Assembly (NCBI GenBank): GCA_035341665.1
Contig: DAOQVR010000001.1
Span: 483,275 to 507,274, forward strand
DNA: 24,000 bases
Direction of reading: 5' to 3'
Source of the DNA: Anaerolineae bacterium
GTDB taxonomy: Bacteria; Chloroflexota; Anaerolineae; JAAYZQ01
Of the stretch, positions 16,061 through 24,000 are shown piece by piece. The notes under the pieces were generated by a model. The model saw only the letters and a program-made list of their open reading frames with translations, ran no database searches and was not told the DNA's origin. Position numbers and translations under genes: made by a program. Numbering within the stretch: the stretch's first letter is position 1; each line of letters begins with the position of its first letter.

Positions 16061-16423
16061 ATGAATCTTCGTACAGTCGTAGCCTTGCTGAGCGGTACCG
16101 TGGGGTCGTCCGAGATCGATCTGGAGCAAGATGTCGTGGCCGGCGCGGCGGCTGATTTGATGAGCGACGTGCTGACATTCGCACGCCCCGACTGCGTGCT
16201 CCTCACTGGTCTGACACACCCCCAGGTGGTGCGCACCGCCGAAATCGCAGGCATCCAGGCAATCGTGTTTGTGCGGGGCAAGCATCCTCCCCGGGAAACA
16301 GTCGAATTGGCTGAGGAGCTCGGGGTCTCGCTCCTGTATACTGGATTCTCGATGTACCAGGCGTGCGGCTTGCTCTACTCGGCAGGACTGCCGCCCACCA
16401 TGGCGGTTAGCCTGCACGACTAG
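16061..16423 (+). CDS. DRTGG-domain protein (copy 1)
   Basis: 120 aa. VLLTGLTHPQVVRTAEIAGIQAIVFVRGKHPPRETVELAEELGVSLLYT fits the DRTGG pattern. GAGGTG lies 4 nt upstream. Confidence 0.65.
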   Translation: MNLRTVVALLSGTVGSSEIDLEQDVVAGAAADLMSDVLTFARPDCVLLTGLTHPQVVRTAEIAGIQAIVFVRGKHPPRETVELAEELGVSLLYTGFSMYQACGLLYSAGLPPTMAVSLHD

Positions 16424-16436
16424 CAGGGAAAGCACC

Positions 16437-17366
16437 ATGGCCGAGCACGTGCCGGAGGTCACCAAGGTCCAGGAGCTTGTCTACGAGCTTCGGATCGAGG
16501 ACGTGATGAGGAGGGACCTAATAACAGTGTCCCCCCAGGCCTCGATGCATGACTTGAAGGAGCTTCTGCGACTGCGCAAGATCTCCGGGGTGCCCGTGGT
16601 CGAAAACGGCAGACTGGTTGGTATTGTCAGCCTGGAGGATCTCATCAAAGCCCTCGAGCAGGGCGACATGGACGCGCTTGTGGGCAGCAAGATGACTACA
16701 CGCGTCGAGACGCTCAACGCGGACGACCCAGTCGTGCAGGCAGTCAACCGGATGAGCCGGTCAGGGTTCGGCCGGTTCCCGGTTGTCGACCGGGCGGGCA
16801 AATTGGTCGGCATCTTGACTCGCGGTGAGGTGATCCGTGGTTTGCTCAGGCGACTCGAGGTAAGCCTCCGCGAGGATGAGATCCGGCGCTACCGCGCCAG
16901 TCACATCTTTGAGGATATCGTCTCGGATCGGACCAGCCTGATTCTCCGCTACTCTGTCAGGGCGAGGGACTTCGCCAAAGGGGGCTCGGCTTCCAGCCGG
17001 ATCAAAAGGGCGATCGAAGCGCTTGGCGGCAACCCGGCACTTGCACGCCGGGTAGGGGTAGCAGCCTACGAGGCAGAGATGAACTTGGTGATCCACGCCG
17101 ACGACGGCGGGGAGCTCATGGTGGAAGCAGTTCCAGACCAGATCTACATGCTTGTCACAGACGTGGGACCGGGCATTCCAGACGTGGACATCGCGATGAG
17201 TCCCGGTTTCTCCACCGCGCCCGACTGGATCCGCGAGATGGGCTTTGGAGCTGGCATGGGGCTGATCAACATACGCAACTGCGCAGACGAGATGAAGGTG
17301 AGGTCTGTAGTTGGCTCAGGGACGTGGCTTGAGGCTTGGTTCCGTATTCCACCCAGGATGGGGTAG
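16437..17366 (+). CDS. CBS-pair protein fused to an anti-sigma/SpoIIAB-like HATPase (putative Ser kinase)
   Basis: Two CBS motifs (VMRRDLITVSP...ISGVPVVENGRLVGIVS and VETLNADDP...FGRFPVVDRAGKLVGILT). The C-terminus (AAYEAEMNLVIHA....DVGPGIPD....GFGAGMGL) is GHKL ATPase-like. ATG 16437 was chosen because the 56 upstream track codons overlap the previous gene. Confidence 0.8.
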   Translation: MAEHVPEVTKVQELVYELRIEDVMRRDLITVSPQASMHDLKELLRLRKISGVPVVENGRLVGIVSLEDLIKALEQGDMDALVGSKMTTRVETLNADDPVVQAVNRMSRSGFGRFPVVDRAGKLVGILTRGEVIRGLLRRLEVSLREDEIRRYRASHIFEDIVSDRTSLILRYSVRARDFAKGGSASSRIKRAIEALGGNPALARRVGVAAYEAEMNLVIHADDGGELMVEAVPDQIYMLVTDVGPGIPDVDIAMSPGFSTAPDWIREMGFGAGMGLINIRNCADEMKVRSVVGSGTWLEAWFRIPPRMG

Positions 17367-17417: not shown

Positions 17418-17783
17418 ATGACAGTTGATGAGGCAGTGGATCTCTTGGGCTTGCGGGTGTTGGCTGGTCGCGATCTTGAGCGCAAGGTCACGGGCGGCTA
17501 CGCCTCGGATATGCTAAGCTGCGTGATGGCCAAGGCCAAAGAGGGCAACATCTGGGTTACACTGCAGGCGCACCAGAATGTCGTGGCGGTGGGCTCGCTT
17601 CTGAACCTGGCCGCCATAGTCGTTACAGAGGGAGTTGAGCCGGATCACGACACGCTCGCGCGGGCGGATGAGCAAGGAGTGGTCGTGCTCTCGTCTGCCC
17701 AGGACAGCTTTGCGGTGGCTGGTCGGCTGTACGAGGCGGGAATCCGTGGTTCGCAGCCCGATGTGGCGCTATCTACTGGCTGA
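17418..17783 (+). CDS. DRTGG-domain protein (copy 2)
   Basis: 121 aa with the same architecture as 16061-16423 (ASDMLSCVM...IWVTLQAHQNVVAVGSLLNLAAIVVTEGVEPDHDTLARADEQGVVVL). Confidence 0.65.
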   Translation: MTVDEAVDLLGLRVLAGRDLERKVTGGYASDMLSCVMAKAKEGNIWVTLQAHQNVVAVGSLLNLAAIVVTEGVEPDHDTLARADEQGVVVLSSAQDSFAVAGRLYEAGIRGSQPDVALSTG

Positions 17784-18498
17784 TTTGCACCTTCACACCG
17801 TCCTGTCTCCGTGCGCGGAGGTGGAGATGATTCCGCCTCTCATTGTGCAGAGAGCGCGCGAGCTGGGACTCGAAGTGATTGCGGTGACCGACCACAATGC
17901 GATGCTAAATGCGCCGGCCGTCCAGGAGGCAGCTGGGGCGAGCCTGACCGTCCTACCTGGCATGGAAGTCATGAGCCGCGAGGAGGTGCACCTGGTGTGC
18001 CTCTTTGACCACGTTTCGCAGGCCGCCGAGCTGCAGGAGCGCGTATGGGAAGCACTCCCGCCGGGAGAGAACAATGAGGAGTACTTCGGGGCGCAATACG
18101 TAGTCGACTCAACAGGCGCATATTTGAGGACGGAAACGCGCCTTCTGTCAGCCGCCACCACGCTCTCGGTCGATGATGTCGCAATGATTGTTCATGGCTT
18201 GGGCGGGATCGTCGTGGCGGCGCATGTGGATCGCCCGTGGGCAAGCCTGATTGCGAACTTGGGCTTTGTGCCGCGCGGCCTTGCGCTTGCAGGTCTGGAC
18301 CTGTCGCGGAGAGCGAGCCTGGAGGAGGTTGAGCGCAGGCTGCCGCAGACTGTGGGTTGGGGAAAGGTGGTCAGCGGCGACGCGCACCGCCTTGAGGAGA
18401 TGACGGCAAGGACTATGCTCAAGGTCCAGGAGCCGACGGTCGCCGAGTTGGCGCTGGCCCTGAAGGCCATGAGCGGCCGGCGTGTCCAGATAGACTAG
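17761..18498 (+). CDS. PHP-domain metal-dependent phosphoesterase
   Basis: LADLHLHTVLSPCAE...VIAVTDHN is the PHP signature. ATG 17761 overlaps the preceding gene by 23 nt. The upstream track codons lie within that gene. Confidence 0.75.
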   Translation: MWRYLLADLHLHTVLSPCAEVEMIPPLIVQRARELGLEVIAVTDHNAMLNAPAVQEAAGASLTVLPGMEVMSREEVHLVCLFDHVSQAAELQERVWEALPPGENNEEYFGAQYVVDSTGAYLRTETRLLSAATTLSVDDVAMIVHGLGGIVVAAHVDRPWASLIANLGFVPRGLALAGLDLSRRASLEEVERRLPQTVGWGKVVSGDAHRLEEMTARTMLKVQEPTVAELALALKAMSGRRVQID

Positions 18499-18507
18499 GA
18501 GGGGTTC

Positions 18508-18975
18508 ATGGAGCAAGAAGCATTGGATCTGACACCGCTGAAGAAGGTGCTGGAGGAGTACCGATCTCAGCATGGGGCGGTCATCCCCGTGTTGCAGAAG
18601 GCGCAGGAGATCTATGGCTGGCTTCCCCGGGAGGTATTGGAGGCAGTCGCCAAGGGTATGCATGTCCCACTGAGTCGCATCTACGGGGTAGTCACCTTCT
18701 ATGCGCAGTTCTACCTGTCACGACGCGGTAGGCACATCGTGCGCCAATGCGACGGGACTGCTTGCCATGTGCGGGGCGCCGCCAAGATAGTGGACGTGGC
18801 ACAGAATCGGCTCGGGATTAAGACGGGCGAGACAACGCCTGATTACCGCGTAACCTTTGAGGTTGTGTACTGCCTGGGCTCCTGTGGTCTGGCTCCGGTT
18901 GCCATGGTGGACGACAAGGTCGTGGGACATCTGGTACCGGAGACAATGGTGGGCCTGCTGGACTCGCTCTCATAG
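18508..18975 (+). CDS. NuoE/HydC-like [2Fe-2S] subunit
   Basis: AVIPVLQKAQEIYGWLP..., then CDGTACHVRG and CLGSCGLAP, the NuoE Cys pattern. AGGAGG lies upstream. Confidence 0.9.
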   Translation: MEQEALDLTPLKKVLEEYRSQHGAVIPVLQKAQEIYGWLPREVLEAVAKGMHVPLSRIYGVVTFYAQFYLSRRGRHIVRQCDGTACHVRGAAKIVDVAQNRLGIKTGETTPDYRVTFEVVYCLGSCGLAPVAMVDDKVVGHLVPETMVGLLDSLS

Positions 18976-18994
18976 GGACGGTGGCGGCGCCACT

Positions 18995-19558
18995 ATGCGT
19001 GAGCTGTCGATGCACATCCTCGACTTGCTGGAGAACGCGCTGGAGGCCGGCGCGACCCTGGTCGATCTCAAGATCGATGAGGATTTGGCAGCCGATCAGC
19101 TTGTGATTGAGGTCAGTGACGACGGACGTGGAATGGATGCAGTGACCGCCCGGCGAGCGCTAGATCCATTCTACACGACGCGGACGACCCGGCACGTGGG
19201 CCTGGGGCTGCCGCTCCTAAAGGCCGCCGCCGAACGGTGCGGGGGGAGCCTGGCGCTCACTTCGAAAGTCGGCTCAGGCACGCAGGTACGGGCAACGTTC
19301 GTGCATAGCCACATGGATCGCGCACCGCTCGGCAGAATAGGTGACAGCCTTCTGGCGTTTCTGATGAGCGACATGGGGGCTGGATTGATCTACAGGCACC
19401 GGGTTGGCGAGAACGTCTTCGAGATGGACTCAACTGCAGTCAAGTCGGAGCTGGATGGGGTCCCGCTATCCCATCCTAGGGTTCGAGAGTGGCTGTACGA
19501 GGCAATTCGCGAAGGCGAGCGCGAGCTCTATTTGGAGAGTCAGGTTGATTCGACCTGA
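18995..19558 (+). CDS. Small GHKL/HATPase_c ATP-binding protein
   Basis: HILDLLENALEAGA (N box), VSDDGRGMD (G1) and GLGLPLL (G2). The start is set at ATG 18995. The upstream track codons overlap the nuoE-like gene. Confidence 0.7.
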   Translation: MRELSMHILDLLENALEAGATLVDLKIDEDLAADQLVIEVSDDGRGMDAVTARRALDPFYTTRTTRHVGLGLPLLKAAAERCGGSLALTSKVGSGTQVRATFVHSHMDRAPLGRIGDSLLAFLMSDMGAGLIYRHRVGENVFEMDSTAVKSELDGVPLSHPRVREWLYEAIREGERELYLESQVDST

Positions 19559-19580
19559 TGGAGGACTTGATGGAGGGAAA

Positions 19581-19961
19581 ATGGCCAAGCTGAAGAGCAT
19601 TGAGGAACTGCAGCGAATCCGGGAGCAAGCTCAGAAGGATTTGAAGGTGCGCACGGAGACCGGTACCAAGATCATCGTGGGCATGGGCACGTGCGGGATT
19701 GCGGCCGGGGCGCGTGAGACTATGCACGCGATCCTGGAAGAGCTCAACAAGCAGAGCATTGACGCCAACGTCACGACCGTCGGCTGCATAGGTATGTGCT
19801 CCAAAGAGCCGTTGGTTGACATCGAACAGGCGGGGAAACCCCGCATTACCTACTGCAACGTTCACCCCGACATGGTTCCCCGCATCATTGACGAGCATCT
19901 ACTGAAGGGACAGGTGGTGCAGGAGTGGGCCATGGGGCGCGTTGCAGATCAGCGAAATTGA
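19581..19961 (+). CDS. Thioredoxin-like [2Fe-2S] ferredoxin (HydD-like small subunit)
   Basis: IIVGMGTCGIAAGA ... VGCIGMCSKEPLV. ATG 19581 is preceded by GGAGGG. Confidence 0.8.
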   Translation: MAKLKSIEELQRIREQAQKDLKVRTETGTKIIVGMGTCGIAAGARETMHAILEELNKQSIDANVTTVGCIGMCSKEPLVDIEQAGKPRITYCNVHPDMVPRIIDEHLLKGQVVQEWAMGRVADQRN

Positions 19962-19989
19962 GGGCACCGATTCGACGGAGGTATGGCGC

Positions 19990-22900
19990 ATGACCGAAGC
20001 ATTGTATAGGGCGAACGTACTCCTGTGCGGTGGAACAGGGTGCGAGGCTTCAAACTCCCGCAGCACCTTTGAGTCACTGGTCCAGGAGCTGGAACGTCGC
20101 GGGCTGTCGGGTGAGGTTGAGGCGATTCACACCGGCTGTCGTGGTTTCTGTGCGATGGGCCCGGTGATGATTATCTACCCGGACGGCATCTTTTACTGCC
20201 AGGTGAAGCCGGAGGACATTCCTCTCCTTGTGGAAGAGACGCTGGTCAAGGGACGCGTGGTCGAGCGGCTGACTTACAAAGAGCCCTCGGGGCACCAGGC
20301 AGTCCCCTTCTACGGCGAGATACCCTTCTACAGCAAGCAACTGCGGATCACGCTCCGCAACTGCGGAATGATTGACCCCGAGAGCATCGATGAGTACATC
20401 GCCCGCGACGGCTACCAGGCGCTCTCGAAGGTTCTCTCATCAATGAGCCCGCAGGATGTGTACGAAGAGGTGAAAAAGTCCGGACTCCGCGGCCGCGGCG
20501 GGGCGGGCTTCCCCGTGGGTCTGAAGTGGCAGTTCACGGCCAAGGCACCGGGTGACGTCAAGTACGTGGTCTGCAACGCGGACGAAGGCGACCCTGGGGC
20601 GTTCATGGACCGCTCGCTGATCGAGGGCGACCCACACAGCCTGATCGAGGGAATGACAATCTGTGCCTACGCCGTGGGTGCGAAGGATGGGTACGTGTAC
20701 TGCAGAGCAGAGTACCCTCTGGCCATCAAGCGGCTCAAGATAGCGATCGCGCAGGCCGAAGACTACGGGCTCATGGGCGATGGCATCCTGGGTACTGATT
20801 TCTCGTTTCACCTTCATGTCAAGGAAGGTGCTGGGGCGTTTGTCTGCGGCGAGGAGACGGCCCTCCTGGCGTCGATCGAAGGTCGCCGCGGCGAGCCCAG
20901 GCCGCGCCCACCCTTCCCGGCGGTGGCTGGCCTGTGGGGAAAGCCAACGAACCTCAACAACGTCAAGAGCTACTGCAATGCCCCACCGATCATCTTGCAC
21001 GGGGCCGACTGGTTTGCCGGCATCGGCTCGCCGCGTTCGCCGGGGACCGCGATCTTTGCGCTAACCGGGAAGGTCAACAACACCGGCCTGGTGGAAGTCC
21101 CGATGGGCATTACGTTGGGCGAGATCATCTACGATATCGGTGGCGGCATTCTTGACGGCAAGCAGTTCAAAGCCGTGCAGACTGGCGGACCGCTTGGAGG
21201 CTGTATTCCGGCCGAGCACCTCAATGTGCGGGTGGACTTTGACTCGCTCAAGGAGGTGGGGGCCGTGATGGGCTCAGGCGGCATGATCGTGGTGGACGAA
21301 GACACTTGCATGGTTGAGTTCGCCAAGTTCTTCCTGACCTTCGCCACGGCCGAGAGCTGCGGAAAGTGCGTCCCGTGCCGCGTGGGAGGCAAGCGACTTC
21401 TGGAGGTCCTCACTCGGATAACCGAGGGGAAGGGCCGCATGGAGGACTTGGACACCATCCGGCAGTTGGCGTCTGGAATGGAGACCGGATCCCTTTGTGC
21501 GCTTGGGCAGCTCACTCCGGGTCCGATCAATGCAGCTCTGCGCTATTTTGAGGAGGAGTTTCGCACGCACATCGTCGAGAAGCGCTGCCCCGCGGGTGCA
21601 TGCAAGGAGCTGGTGCGCGCCCGGTGCACCAACGCTTGCCCGGCCGACGTCGATGTGCCGAGCTACTTGTCGCTGATTGCGCAGGGACGCTATGCCGAGG
21701 GGCTTGAGATTCACCGTCGTACGAATCCCTTCGCTCTGGCATGCGGGCGGGTCTGCCCCGCATTCTGCGAGGCGCGCTGCCGTCGTGCCGACATCGACGA
21801 GTCGATCGCCATCCGCTCGGCCAAGCGCTTCATGGCGGACCATGAGCTTGCCAACCCATGGACACCCCCAATCACTGGCAAACCAAAGACCGAGCGAGTA
21901 GCCGTCGTCGGTTCTGGGCCGGCCGGGCTGACCGCTGCGCTAAGGCTGGCGCAGCAGGGCTATCAGGTGACCGTGTTTGAGAAGCTGCCAGTCGCCGGGG
22001 GAATGATGGCCGTTGGCATCCCAGAGTACCGGTTGCCCAGAGACATTCTGAATGTCGAGATCGACAACATCCGCAGGGCTGGCGTCGAAATCCGCTGCAA
22101 CCAGGAACTGGGACGCGACATAACGATCGGGTCGCTGATGGATGAAAGCGGGTACAAAGCAGTGGTGCTTGCCATTGGCGCGCACAGGAGCGGCAAGCTC
22201 CGGATCGAGGGCGAAGACAAGAGTGGCGTTCTTCCGGGTGCCGACTTCCTGCGCGACGTGGCGCTGGGCAACCCGCCCGACCTGCGCGGCAAGCGAGTCG
22301 GCGTGGTCGGCGGCGGCAATGTGGCCATCGATGCGGTACGCACCGCATGGAGGCTGGGGGCAGCCGAGGTTCATGTCATCTATCGCCGTCGGAAGGAGGA
22401 TATGCCCGCCTATGCCGAGGAGATCCAGGCAGCAGCTGACGAAGGGGCGGTCTTCCACTTCCTGACCAACCCAACCCGCGTTTTGGGTGACCGAGTCGTG
22501 ACGGGTGTCGAGTGCCTCAAGCACACCCTGGGCGAGTTTGACCGAAGCGGGCGGCGGCGCCCGGTTGCGCTCTCCGGCTCGGAGTTCGTCATAGAGCTTG
22601 ACATCCTGATCCCGGCCATCGGCCAGCTGCCCGACTCCGAAGGCCTTGCAGATCAGATTGAGCTGAAGCGAGACAGCACATTGGCTGTCAGTGACGCGCT
22701 GCTCACCAGTCAGCCGGGGGTCTTTGGCGCAGGTGATGTGGTACTGGGCCCGGCCTCCGTCGTGCAGGCTGTGGCTCAGGGGAACCAAGTTGCGCGCGCT
22801 GTGGATCGATACCTCAGAACCGGGGAAACCGATCGAGTCATTACGCTTCCGGGCTATGAGGTAGTGGAACAGCAGTTCAATCTGGACGACTACTCCGAGG

Positions 22901-23103
22901 CCAAGCGGCCCAAGATGCCCGAGCGCCCGCTCGCTGAGCGGAAAGGCAGCTTTGCCGAAGTGGAGCTCGGAATGTCTGAGGATGCGGTTCGGGAGGAGTG
23001 CAAGCGCTGCCTGCGCTGCGATCTGGAGTGGCTCGGCGAGATGCAACTGGCGTTCCAGCCTGTGGCTGTCCGCGAGCTGGAAGAGGAGACAGTGGGAGTA
23101 TGA
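19990..23103 (+). CDS. NuoF/HydB-like FMN/NAD(H) subunit fused to a GltD/NfnB-like FAD/NAD(P)H oxidoreductase
   Basis: N-terminal Trx-like 2Fe-2S domain (LLCGGTGC...GCRGFCAMGP). NuoF core (GLRGRGGAGFPVGLKWQF, NADEGDPGAF, ESCGKCVPCRVG). GltD-type Fe-S region follows (NACPADVDV...CGRVCPAFCEARC). Two dinucleotide folds are present (VAVVGSGPAGLTAA, VGVVGGGNVAIDA). ATG 19990 has GGAGG 9 nt upstream. Confidence 0.9.
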   Translation: MTEALYRANVLLCGGTGCEASNSRSTFESLVQELERRGLSGEVEAIHTGCRGFCAMGPVMIIYPDGIFYCQVKPEDIPLLVEETLVKGRVVERLTYKEPSGHQAVPFYGEIPFYSKQLRITLRNCGMIDPESIDEYIARDGYQALSKVLSSMSPQDVYEEVKKSGLRGRGGAGFPVGLKWQFTAKAPGDVKYVVCNADEGDPGAFMDRSLIEGDPHSLIEGMTICAYAVGAKDGYVYCRAEYPLAIKRLKIAIAQAEDYGLMGDGILGTDFSFHLHVKEGAGAFVCGEETALLASIEGRRGEPRPRPPFPAVAGLWGKPTNLNNVKSYCNAPPIILHGADWFAGIGSPRSPGTAIFALTGKVNNTGLVEVPMGITLGEIIYDIGGGILDGKQFKAVQTGGPLGGCIPAEHLNVRVDFDSLKEVGAVMGSGGMIVVDEDTCMVEFAKFFLTFATAESCGKCVPCRVGGKRLLEVLTRITEGKGRMEDLDTIRQLASGMETGSLCALGQLTPGPINAALRYFEEEFRTHIVEKRCPAGACKELVRARCTNACPADVDVPSYLSLIAQGRYAEGLEIHRRTNPFALACGRVCPAFCEARCRRADIDESIAIRSAKRFMADHELANPWTPPITGKPKTERVAVVGSGPAGLTAALRLAQQGYQVTVFEKLPVAGGMMAVGIPEYRLPRDILNVEIDNIRRAGVEIRCNQELGRDITIGSLMDESGYKAVVLAIGAHRSGKLRIEGEDKSGVLPGADFLRDVALGNPPDLRGKRVGVVGGGNVAIDAVRTAWRLGAAEVHVIYRRRKEDMPAYAEEIQAAADEGAVFHFLTNPTRVLGDRVVTGVECLKHTLGEFDRSGRRRPVALSGSEFVIELDILIPAIGQLPDSEGLADQIELKRDSTLAVSDALLTSQPGVFGAGDVVLGPASVVQAVAQGNQVARAVDRYLRTGETDRVITLPGYEVVEQQFNLDDYSEAKRPKMPERPLAERKGSFAEVELGMSEDAVREECKRCLRCDLEWLGEMQLAFQPVAVRELEEETVGV

Positions 23104-24000
23104 CTACCATCAACCTGACTATCAACGGCCATAAGGTCAGCGCGCCTGCAGGCAGCACCGTCCTCGACGCCGCGCGGATAGCCGGCGTCAAGATCCCAAC
23201 GCTGTGCGACCATCCGGCGCTGGCACCGATCGGTGCTTGCCGCCTGTGCCTGGTCGAAGTCAAGGGGCAGCGCACCCTTCAGCCGGCATGCACCTTTCCC
23301 GCGGGCGAGGGCATGGAGGTGACGACGCACTCCCCGCAGGTCGAGGAAGCTCGCCGCTTTGTCTTGGAGCTGCTCCTCTCCGACCACCCCCTCGATTGCA
23401 TGACCTGTGAGCGCGCCGGTAGCTGTGAGCTGCAGGACCTGGCCTACCAGTACGGATTGGACAAGACGCGGTTCCCTGGTGTGCAGCACAAGTACCCAAT
23501 CGATGCCTCCAACCCGTTCTATATCCGTGACTATGACAAGTGCATTGTCTGCCGGCGCTGCGTGCGGGCATGCAATGAGATCAACGGCGTGGAGGCCATC
23601 GGGCTCATACAGCGTGGCTTCGATACGAAGGTTGGCACGCCCTTTGATGGCACGATGCAGGACAGCGTGTGCGAGTTCTGCGGGATGTGCGTCGAGGTCT
23701 GCCCGACTGGAGCGTTGGTGCCCAAGCTTCGAATAGGTCGAGGGCGCGCATGGGAAGTGCAGCGGGTGGCTACGACCTGTTCCTACTGTGGGGTTGGCTG
23801 CCAGTTTTACCTCGAAGTCAAGGACGGCAAGATAGTCGGCGTCTCCTCCAAGTGGGATGCACCATCCAACCATGGCTGGACCTGTGTGAAGGGGCGCTTT
23901 GGCTGGGACTACGTGCATCACGCCGACCGTCTCACTACACCCCTCATCCGGCGCCAGAAGGGCGAGCCTCTATCCGCGGTTAGCTGGGATGACGCGCTTG
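23100..24000 (+). CDS. fdhA: Formate dehydrogenase alpha subunit (NuoG-like Fe-S N-terminus plus Mo/W-bisPGD domain); C-terminus beyond the window
   Basis: The frame is open from ATG 23100 (ATGA overlap with the upstream stop) to the window end. My translation is MTTINLTINGHKVSAPAGSTVLDAARIAGVKIPTLCDHP...CRLCLVEV..., HPLDCMTCERAGSCELQ, CIVCRRCVRAC, CEFCGMCVEVCP, then TTCSYCGVGCQF and NHGWTCVKGRFGWDYV. The last two are typical of FdhF/FdsA-type enzymes. Confidence 0.9.
   Translation, partial: MTTINLTINGHKVSAPAGSTVLDAARIAGVKIPTLCDHPALAPIGACRLCLVEVKGQRTLQPACTFPAGEGMEVTTHSPQVEEARRFVLELLLSDHPLDCMTCERAGSCELQDLAYQYGLDKTRFPGVQHKYPIDASNPFYIRDYDKCIVCRRCVRACNEINGVEAIGLIQRGFDTKVGTPFDGTMQDSVCEFCGMCVEVCPTGALVPKLRIGRGRAWEVQRVATTCSYCGVGCQFYLEVKDGKIVGVSSKWDAPSNHGWTCVKGRFGWDYVHHADRLTTPLIRRQKGEPLSAVSWDDAL

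Follow-up and report, generated by a model that had tools for sequence, protein, structure and literature searches.

Relation to described systems

Bfu and HydABC enzymes are central to anaerobic energy metabolism, and the mechanism of their electron bifurcation is still debated. The subject of this analysis is an operon in a 24,000-nucleotide stretch of DNA from an Anaerolineae bacterium (the window; G000:C1:483275-507274 of an assembly of 4.47 Mb, 94.6% complete), whose genome has its nearest relatives among Anaerolineae/Chloroflexota metagenome-assembled genomes (MAGs). The operon encodes a formate dehydrogenase (FDH) of the Bfu kind in which the NuoF-like subunit, BfuB, is fused to a GltD-type flavoprotein module that stands in the place of the ferredoxin-type B3/B4 domain. 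The best explanation of this arrangement, to which we give a probability of roughly one half, is that the enzyme couples formate/CO2 to NAD(H) as well as to NADP(H), the latter standing in for ferredoxin.

The BfuABC family, including predicted FDH members (Fdh-Bfu), has been published with a definition that requires a ferredoxin-type domain, IPR017896 (Schut et al. 2022, PMC9304861). Fdh-Bfu enzymes include one predicted in Carboxydothermus hydrogenoformans (Type 1) and one, HylCBA-FdhF2, that has been characterised from Gottschalkia acidurici (PMC9304861). The window operon shares with these a NuoE-like BfuC, a NuoF-like BfuB with an N-terminal [2Fe-2S] domain, a BfuA-type FdhA that unites a NuoG-like cluster chain and the pterin site in one subunit (the Type 1 layout), and accessory HATPase and 2Fe-2S genes. 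Its BfuB has the Nuo51 FMN/NADH domain, SLBB, B1, B2/Zn and B5, its BfuC (IPR002023) has C1, and its BfuA has the A1 [2Fe-2S] and the [4Fe-4S] domains; what it lacks of the family definition is the C-terminal ferredoxin-type 2x[4Fe-4S] domain of BfuB (B3/B4, IPR017896), in whose place stands the GltD module. Given this replacement, the low-potential partner is probably NADP(H) rather than ferredoxin.

The closest solved BfuB and BfuC (151 bits for the latter) belong to the NiFe-HydABCSL of Acetomicrobium mobile (7t2r/7t30), in which, in contrast to the window, HydB has a canonical ferredoxin-like tail and the third substrate is H2 instead of formate. Its HydA-like, HydS and HydL module is of the type that partners most relatives of the fusion.

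A second group of solved relatives is formed by the NfnABC/Stn enzymes of S. ovata (8oh5), C. saccharolyticus (Csac; 9bov) and T. sibiricus (Tsi; 9n5u), which have the same BfuBC core, a permuted Lys-type GltD module with FAD and an NADPH site, and an FDH-like BfuA. In these enzymes, however, the GltD module lies within BfuA, after the A1 domain (StnC/NfnA residues ~101-575), B3/B4 persists on BfuB, which reduces ferredoxin, and only a vestige of the pterin site is left, whereas at the window locus the module sits on the C-terminus of BfuB, B3/B4 is gone and the FDH site is intact (Sec, that is selenocysteine, His and Arg). Of the traits that mark Stn, the window thus shares the Lys-ligated proximal cluster and has neither a GltD module in BfuA nor a vestigial pterin site. 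An earlier note on this DNA had pointed to Stn as a comparable combination of NuoF and NfnB; the shared core and module bear this out, while the topology is different, since the GltD module of Stn is carried by the NuoG-like subunit.

Electron transfer in the solved Nfn-Bfu enzymes follows a path from FAD through A7, A6, A3, A2 and A1 to the [B1-FMN-C1] centre (PMC11829005, PMC12018979), and the FAD of NfnA is a terminal electron entry point and not a bifurcating flavin (PMC11829005, PMC12018979). The ferredoxin site of Bfu enzymes has been mapped experimentally to the B3/B4 domain; in Tsi NfnABC, ferredoxin docks in between B3/B4 and the C-terminal domain of NfnC, while C1 swings between FMN and B3/B4 (PMC12018979).

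A BfuB tail exchanged in this way has been described before. In 'sub-type I' BfuB proteins of group A3 [FeFe]-hydrogenase clusters, sequence and predicted structure indicated that B3/B4 has given way to DPD_II, a domain with two clusters, and an FAD/NAD(P) domain (Zheng & Huang 2024, mSystems, PMC11406978). The window fusion has this tail; the published cases stand only beside [FeFe] hydrogenases, whereas its own partner is a Sec-FDH. We found no other publication that describes the fusion in the literature searched, which under-represents subscription journals, and none there on a NuoF-GltD fusion beside an FDH. New here are the permuted Lys-type module, the swaps of tail and partner seen in phylogenies, the finding that all the FDH partners have a Sec codon (16/16), a Wood-Ljungdahl context in which neither hydrogenase nor Rnf was found, and the occurrence of the fusion in 7% of the Chloroflexota sampled. 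The operon is a real and ordinary-looking case of a widespread variant of a known enzyme family.

Two more distant systems bear on the comparison. Moorella thermoacetica FdhAB (Moth_2312-2314, PMC5736913) is alike by description in its cytoplasmic Sec FdhA with an FeS/NADP-binding subunit, its link between CO2/formate and NADPH and its Wood-Ljungdahl host, and unlike, again by description, in having neither a NuoE/NuoF module nor an FMN/NAD(H) site. NfnSL/NfnAB (5jca, 4ylf) has a subunit of the same FAD/NADPH/two-cluster fold (Foldseek TMt ~0.8), but its Glu ligand, bifurcating FAD, NfnS partner and unpermuted segments have no counterpart in the window fusion.

The BfuB-GltD fusion

The fusion and its parts lie in the window as follows.

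19990-23103, forward strand: the 1037-residue BfuB-GltD fusion, called from Pfam and NCBIfam domain matches
19990-21624, forward strand: BfuB core (residues 1-545), from phmmer, Foldseek and a 51-sequence alignment
21625-21855, forward strand: GltD/DPD-II-type two-[4Fe-4S] domain (residues 546-622; PF14691 at 4e-20)
21895-22782, forward strand: FAD and NADP(H) dinucleotide-binding domains (residues 636-931; PF07992 at 5e-32)
22906-23031, forward strand: permuted segment (residues ~973-1014), which aligns with the N-terminus of ordinary GltD/NfnL

Pfam matches run in the order 2Fe-2S_thioredx (7-83), Complex1_51K (161-331), SLBB (356-402), NADH_4Fe-4S (444-527), Fer4_20 (535-622) and Pyr_redox_2 (636-931), with NCBIfam nuoF_fam at 129-528 and PRK12771/PRK12814 at 515-1013. 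The core thus carries PF01512, PF10531 and PF10589, which correspond to the Nuo51 FMN/NADH, SLBB and B1 domains. Its best solved match is the A. mobile NiFe-HydB 7t2r_B (phmmer, 847 bits over residues 4-543; 69% identity over 423 aligned columns in Foldseek), followed by the A. woodii and T. kivui HydB, the Csac and Tsi NfnB, StnB and the T. maritima HydB, and Foldseek TMt against HydB, NfnB and StnB is 0.82-0.96.

The ligands of the core are retained. The B5 [2Fe-2S] cysteines C13, C18, C50 and C54 align with those of HydB, the B1 [4Fe-4S] ligands C457, C460, C463 and C503 are kept, and the B2/Zn linker site C440, H527, C533 and C538 corresponds to C437, H524, C529 and C534 of Tsi NfnB; all are invariant or at least 90% conserved in the 51 sequences. 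The NuoF half is a subunit of the Bfu/HydB type. The glycine-rich and acidic FMN/NADH motifs are also kept, and the ADEGDPG and GEET glutamates are invariant. We take these glutamates to be those tied by mutagenesis of complex I to NADH preference at the FMN site; by this analogy they suggest that the FMN site of the fusion prefers NADH.

The GltD module begins where the Bfu homology stops. All alignments to solved BfuB proteins end at residues 543-546, about 55 residues short of the C-termini of those proteins, and the alignment to the GltD insert of NfnA/StnC starts at that point, at residue ~101 of the latter. In the two-[4Fe-4S] domain the ligands are C546, C550, C589, C593, C597 and K612. 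Of these, K612, present in at least 90% of the sequences, falls in the alignment on Lys170 of Csac NfnA, which is the non-Cys ligand of cluster A7; NfnL has Glu at this position. The permuted segment (ER..F.EV...C1007xxC1010) aligns with residues 8-49 of 5jca_L, 15-54 of the GltD 6s6s_G and 481-571 of Csac NfnA, and C1007 and C1010, the predicted ligands of the distal [4Fe-4S], are invariant among the 51 sequences. Because this last folded segment matches the NfnL/GltD N-terminus, the proximal cluster is predicted to be held by C550, C589, C593 and K612 and the distal cluster by C546, C597, C1007 and C1010, all of which are invariant or nearly so. On this ligand pattern and segment order the module is assigned to the NfnA/Stn type, circularly permuted and Lys-ligated.

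The FAD/NADP(H) part superimposes on NfnL (5jca_L, 4ylf_B) with a Foldseek TMt of 0.79-0.82 and carries the motifs GSGPAG, GGGNVAID (GxGxxA) and YRRR, conserved in the 51-sequence alignment. The GxGxxA rule for NADPH sites has been applied in the same way to StnC (PMC7483475), and GGGNVAID and YRRR are as expected for the predicted NADPH site.

These results agree with much of what the earlier note had read from the DNA: a four-part fusion (Pfam, NCBIfam and structure searches), two flavins and two nucleotide sites (as predicted sites, from domain and structure matches), and a chimera of HydABC and Nfn elements, the core being HydB-type and the module NfnA-type. The NuoE-like subunit, the extra 2Fe-2S ferredoxin and the NuoG-like Fe-S N-terminus of FdhA were likewise recovered with Pfam. 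The view that a GltD module had been added to a complete bifurcating core did not survive, however, as the alignments above and the relatives described next indicate that the module replaces the C-terminal B3/B4 domain.

Replacement of the ferredoxin-type tail

Three close relatives, whose cores are 74-75% identical to that of the window protein, have a canonical tail (two CxxCxxCxxxCP motifs) after a shared RCPAxxC motif. Their genes, which nest within the fused clade, are these.

L077:7305-9176: canonical-tail BfuB
L080:5641-7497: canonical-tail BfuB, followed by a FocA-like gene
L082:7001-8857: canonical-tail BfuB, followed by a FocA-like gene

As the canonical tail begins at the same point in such close relatives, the B3/B4 domain has been replaced and not supplemented. 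In the tree of the cores the proteins with canonical tails fall within the clade of fused ones, so that the tail must have changed at least three times; both tails therefore fill one exchangeable position.

A simple fusion of stnB and stnC genes was considered and rejected, as StnC/NfnA has a [2Fe-2S] A1 domain before its GltD module. Here that A1 domain remains on FdhA and the ferredoxin-like tail of BfuB is gone, which argues for domain replacement instead of the loss of a stop codon.

The earlier note had also allowed that the junction near 21560-21600 might be a frameshift or assembly artefact joining a NuoF gene to a separate GltD gene, an explanation that we reject as wholly improbable. 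A search of 5.8 billion proteins returned full-length homologues of 1030-1060 residues at 71-95% identity in at least 120 clusters, and the same single open reading frame of ~1035 residues recurs in hundreds of independent assemblies from several phyla. Fusion relatives occur in Chloroflexota, Thermodesulfobacteriota, Planctomycetota, Acidobacteriota, Armatimonadota, Poribacteria and others, and are encoded by 587 of 598 pattern-matched stretches in a collection of species genomes, some BfuB of the canonical kind without the fusion being counted among them. Of 200 evenly sampled Chloroflexota genomes, 14 (7%) contain an open frame that crosses the junction and exceeds 1000 residues. Both flanks of the junction hold residues invariant in the 51-sequence alignment, and an AlphaFold2 model of the fusion (pLDDT 88.5, pTM 0.84) is confident across it.

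The formate dehydrogenase subunit

The two other redox subunits are encoded on either side of the fusion gene.

18508-18975, forward strand: BfuC (NuoE/HydC-like), with the C1 [2Fe-2S] cluster (PF01257 at 6e-50)
23100-24000, forward strand: FdhA (Pfam), of which the first 300 of 900 residues lie inside the window; the gene runs on to G000:C1:509076

The eight best matches of BfuC in the PDB are all Bfu-type C subunits (7t2r_C at 151 bits, 8a6t_C, 9n5u_C, 8oh5_A and others), which outrank complex I NuoE. The fdhA start codon (23100) overlaps the stop codon of the fusion gene (ATGA).

Followed into the genome, FdhA has 900 residues with an in-frame TGA at residue 355 (HCARL-U-HS), ~160 nt past the window end, followed by His356, and with the arginine motif NPLRGQNNVQG. 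The question raised by the earlier note, whether Sec or Cys stands at the active site, is hereby answered in favour of Sec, and TGA occupies the same codon in all 16 of the 16 orthologous fdhA genes beside related fusions; tRNA-Sec and SelB are present in the genome. The N-terminal 300 residues comprise a NuoG-like [2Fe-2S], a His-ligated [4Fe-4S], a dicluster domain and a Molybdop_Fe4S4 domain (Pfam Fer2_4, NADH-G_4Fe-4S_3, Fer4_Nqo3 and Molybdop_Fe4S4), with no GltD insert. Against solved, NAD-dependent FDH alpha subunits the protein scores 790-808 bits, and it has full-length matches to 9wxb_B, 7vw6_A, 6tg9_A and 1aa6_A. With its Sec-His pair, Arg, Molybdop_Fe4S4 and pterin domains, FdhA has every feature by which a Mo/W-bis-PGD formate dehydrogenase is recognised and is predicted to be one.

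The Mo/W maturation genes that the earlier note thought might follow fdhA are absent downstream of it, where two diiron genes stand instead, and FdhD was not found in the 94.6%-complete genome. A 6-bp hairpin (GUGACC-GGUCU-GGUCAC; L002:6437-6468) begins 15 nt after the Sec UGA. Its GGUCU loop is presumably similar to the one at the apex of the E. coli fdhF SECIS; in a SECIS folding-energy test it scored no better than shuffled sequence (z = 0.13).

Proposed electron path

We propose that the operon encodes a cytoplasmic Bfu-type (HydABC-like) Sec formate dehydrogenase of three redox subunits. BfuC would be the NuoE-like carrier of the mobile C1 [2Fe-2S], BfuB-GltD would hold FMN/NAD(H), B1, the B2/Zn hinge, B5 and the NfnA-type module with its two [4Fe-4S] clusters, FAD and NADP(H) site, and FdhA would be the BfuA equivalent with the Mo/W-pterin site. 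The cluster chain of FdhA would carry electrons between the pterin, where formate/CO2 react, and the [B1-FMN-C1] centre. One branch would end at FMN and NAD(H); on the branch gated by C1 the two GltD clusters would take the place of B3/B4, and FAD with NADP(H) that of ferredoxin. The net reaction would be 2 formate + NAD+ + NADP+ <-> 2 CO2 + NADH + NADPH, without ferredoxin. In vivo the enzyme might dispose of NADH and NADPH together as formate when formate is low, supply the methyl branch by reducing CO2, or work in the opposite direction. With the core and hinge kept and a terminal-type NADPH/FAD module at the place of B3/B4, the simplest inference is that NADP(H) replaces ferredoxin on the gated branch. 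What the sequences show is the architecture, the cofactor ligands, the exchange of the tail domain, the Sec codon and the modular distribution; that the GltD clusters are wired to C1, that coupling is obligate, in which direction the enzyme works and that it needs no ferredoxin are what we infer from them.

Several points weigh against this proposal. At textbook potentials (CO2/formate ~-430 mV at E0'; cellular NAD ~-280 mV and NADP ~-370 mV), formate reduces NAD+ and NADP+ exergonically, so that the forward direction needs no coupling; CO2 reduction would be feasible only at low formate, helped by the use of NADPH together with NADH. The AlphaFold2 model covers the fusion subunit alone, and no biochemical study of any member of the fused family was found in the literature searched. 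The genome has genes for pyruvate/2-oxoacid:ferredoxin oxidoreductase (POR), and neither Rnf nor hydrogenase was found in it, so that some route of ferredoxin reoxidation is needed and the fusion FDH could be that route. The operon includes a separate 2Fe-2S ferredoxin gene. Finally, Zheng & Huang regarded the extra FAD as possibly a second bifurcating centre (PMC11406978).

The energetics lend some weight to an enzyme in which coupling is unnecessary, FMN/NAD(H) and FAD/NADP(H) being independent ports on one iron-sulfur wire that work with either nucleotide alone and with no ferredoxin. The HydABC of Syntrophomonas wolfei, which lacks B3/B4, is non-bifurcating and works with NADH alone (as summarised in PMC11406978), and the FdhAB of M. 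thermoacetica, with its FeS and NADP-binding beta subunit (PMC5736913), indicates that an NADPH-linked FDH without NuoF is viable. We nevertheless consider such an uncoupled enzyme unlikely, as the operon keeps the full Bfu gating set (the C1 domain of BfuC, the B2/Zn hinge and B5), and the GltD module sits at the exact C1-gated output, where it has repeatedly been swapped with the ferredoxin-docking tail, which points to a role on the gated branch and not as a side entry.

The ferredoxin-related points would instead favour the reading of the earlier note, a doubly bifurcating enzyme that links formate, NAD(H), NADP(H) and ferredoxin, with ferredoxin at the distal GltD cluster as in NfnSL or coupled through a bifurcating FAD. 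In NfnSL the two NfnL [4Fe-4S] clusters lead to ferredoxin, and the module folds like NfnL (TMt ~0.8); a possible second FAD-based centre is what Zheng & Huang proposed (PMC11406978); the genome makes reduced ferredoxin through POR without a visible Rnf or hydrogenase; and a 2Fe-2S ferredoxin is encoded in the operon itself. Yet B3/B4, the sole experimentally mapped ferredoxin site of Bfu enzymes, is absent, which makes ferredoxin-dependent bifurcation less likely. The module is of the NfnA type (K612, permuted topology), in which FAD is terminal and non-bifurcating, so that the Lys ligand and the permutation favour a terminal NADPH port over the second bifurcating FAD of Zheng & Huang. The 2Fe-2S ferredoxin gene, moreover, occurs equally in canonical-tail operons and is thus no substitute specific to the fusion. 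On balance we hold the ferredoxin-dependent enzyme to be a little less probable still than the uncoupled one.

Coupling to NAD(H) and NADP(H) with no ferredoxin can, more tentatively, be extended to the family: the C-terminus of BfuB may be a swappable output port of the Bfu flavobicluster, and the fused enzymes may be ferredoxin-free and obligately couple NADH and NADPH to formate, as here, or to H2, as in most relatives. The fusion offers a natural test of the gated branch, since the ferredoxin branch is exchanged for an NADPH/FAD module while the other elements are kept. If the proposal holds, confurcation of NADH and NADPH into formate and hydrogen would form a new class of reaction, the disposal of NADPH by syntrophs and fermenters would be accounted for, and a ferredoxin-independent, nicotinamide-driven CO2 reductase of biotechnological interest would be at hand. 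Obligate coupling of NADH and NADPH would change redox-balance models for Anaerolineae, Desulfobacterota, Planctomycetota and other organisms abundant in sediments and digesters.

Exchange of catalytic partners

The genes beside the fusion were surveyed in the 80 best related loci, with the following result.

~38 loci: a 594-residue HydA-like protein with a vestigial pterin domain and NiFe small and large subunits (the A. mobile HydABCSL layout)
~16 loci, all Chloroflexota: full-length Sec-FDH
1 locus (L048), the only one among the 80: [FeFe] hydrogenase
1 locus (L038): HdrA/MvhD/FrhB-like genes

The fusion is thus found next to fdhA in other genomes, as the earlier note had proposed to look for. 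A maximum-likelihood tree built from 60 fusion proteins cannot, given its well-supported branches, be reconciled with fewer than six switches between FDH and NiFe partners; taken with the tail changes, these show that catalytic partner and tail have each been swapped more than once. Pairing with an FDH is one combination that recurs and not a one-off, and the swaps between FDH and NiFe partners fit substrates of similar potential feeding one core. Partnership with FDH as the defining trait of the fusion was rejected, most partners being NiFe HydA-like/S/L modules. The earlier statement that no characterised FDH is built in this way stands in so far as we found no biochemical study, while the design proves unique neither to FDH nor to this genome.

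Genes for formate channels accompany several of these loci. A formate/nitrite transporter gene lies between the fusion gene and fdhA in one Anaerolinea MAG (L057:9900-11072), and FocA-like genes follow fdhA in L012, L022, L031, L035, L036, L049 and L055. In one of the sampled Chloroflexota genomes the junction-spanning homologue (G151:C3:173069-173908) lies in a frame of 1297 residues, ~250 longer than usual, and may carry a further fused domain.

Genome context

The genome has the Wood-Ljungdahl pathway, of which FTHFS and acetyl-CoA synthase (ACS) are encoded together on contig C18, near HdrA/MvhD-like and GltD-like genes, and the POR genes number several. Neither NiFe hydrogenase, FeFe hydrogenase nor Rnf (RnfD) was found in the 94.6%-complete assembly. 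A second Sec-FdhA (G000:C15:4169-12118), 54% identical to the first and without the N-terminal NuoG-like [2Fe-2S] part, adjoins HdrA/MvhD-like genes and a FocA formate channel and is probably an Hdr-linked formate dehydrogenase. With two Sec-FDHs present and no hydrogenase or Rnf found, formate is the visible electron currency of this bacterium, and the fusion FDH and the Hdr-linked Sec-FDH are its only visible electron outlets of the H2/formate type. For reverse Wood-Ljungdahl syntrophs among Anaerolineae MAGs, a need to reoxidise NADPH together with NADH has been argued (bioRxiv 10.1101/2021.07.06.451242).

The genome also has a second Bfu-type set (G000:C2:483-7835), which comprises a NuoE-like gene, a BfuB with a canonical two-cluster tail (51% identical), a short BfuA-like gene and then HdrA-like genes, and which resembles the partner arrangement of locus L038.

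Accessory and neighbouring genes

The operon belongs to one co-directional string of genes that extends from ~16.1 kb to past the window end. In addition to the three redox subunits it contains the following.

16269-17366, forward strand: CBS-pair and HATPase accessory gene (Pfam CBS at 1.4e-31, HATPase_c_2)
17418-17783, forward strand: DRTGG-domain accessory gene (Pfam DRTGG at 1.1e-7), syntenic in related loci
17635-18498, forward strand: PHP-domain accessory gene (Pfam PHP at 1.4e-8), syntenic in related loci
18995-19558, forward strand: small HATPase_c protein, regulatory or accessory (PF02518 at 1e-16)
19581-19961, forward strand: Trx-like [2Fe-2S] ferredoxin, HydD/BfuD-like (weak matches to PF01257 and NF041612)

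The CBS-HATPase gene is kept upstream of the fusion in many related loci and is a member of the conserved accessory set found upstream of HydABC-type operons. The open reading frame of the PHP gene overlaps the DRTGG gene, for which reason its true start probably lies downstream of 17635. The small HATPase_c gene, which the earlier note did not list, holds the same position in many related loci, and the Trx-like ferredoxin gene is found in operons with fused and with canonical BfuB. Domain searches of the operon proteins found no NfnS-like gene.

Directly 3' of fdhA, beyond the window end, lie two ferritin/rubrerythrin-like diiron genes (L002:8096-8626 and L002:8642-9109; G000:C1:509095-510108), both with ExxH motifs and without a rubredoxin domain. 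In L053 and L060, too, the pair stands behind fdhA. Only the first is seen in L007; in L003 the first stands behind fdhA, with the second at a more distant downstream site. Homologues of the second lie within many NiFe-type operons, between the 2Fe-2S ferredoxin and fusion genes (e.g. L005, L008, L009, L017, L026, L030, L036, L049 and L074), an arrangement reminiscent of the 'Rub-Bfu' enzymes that Schut et al. 2022 predicted (PMC9304861).

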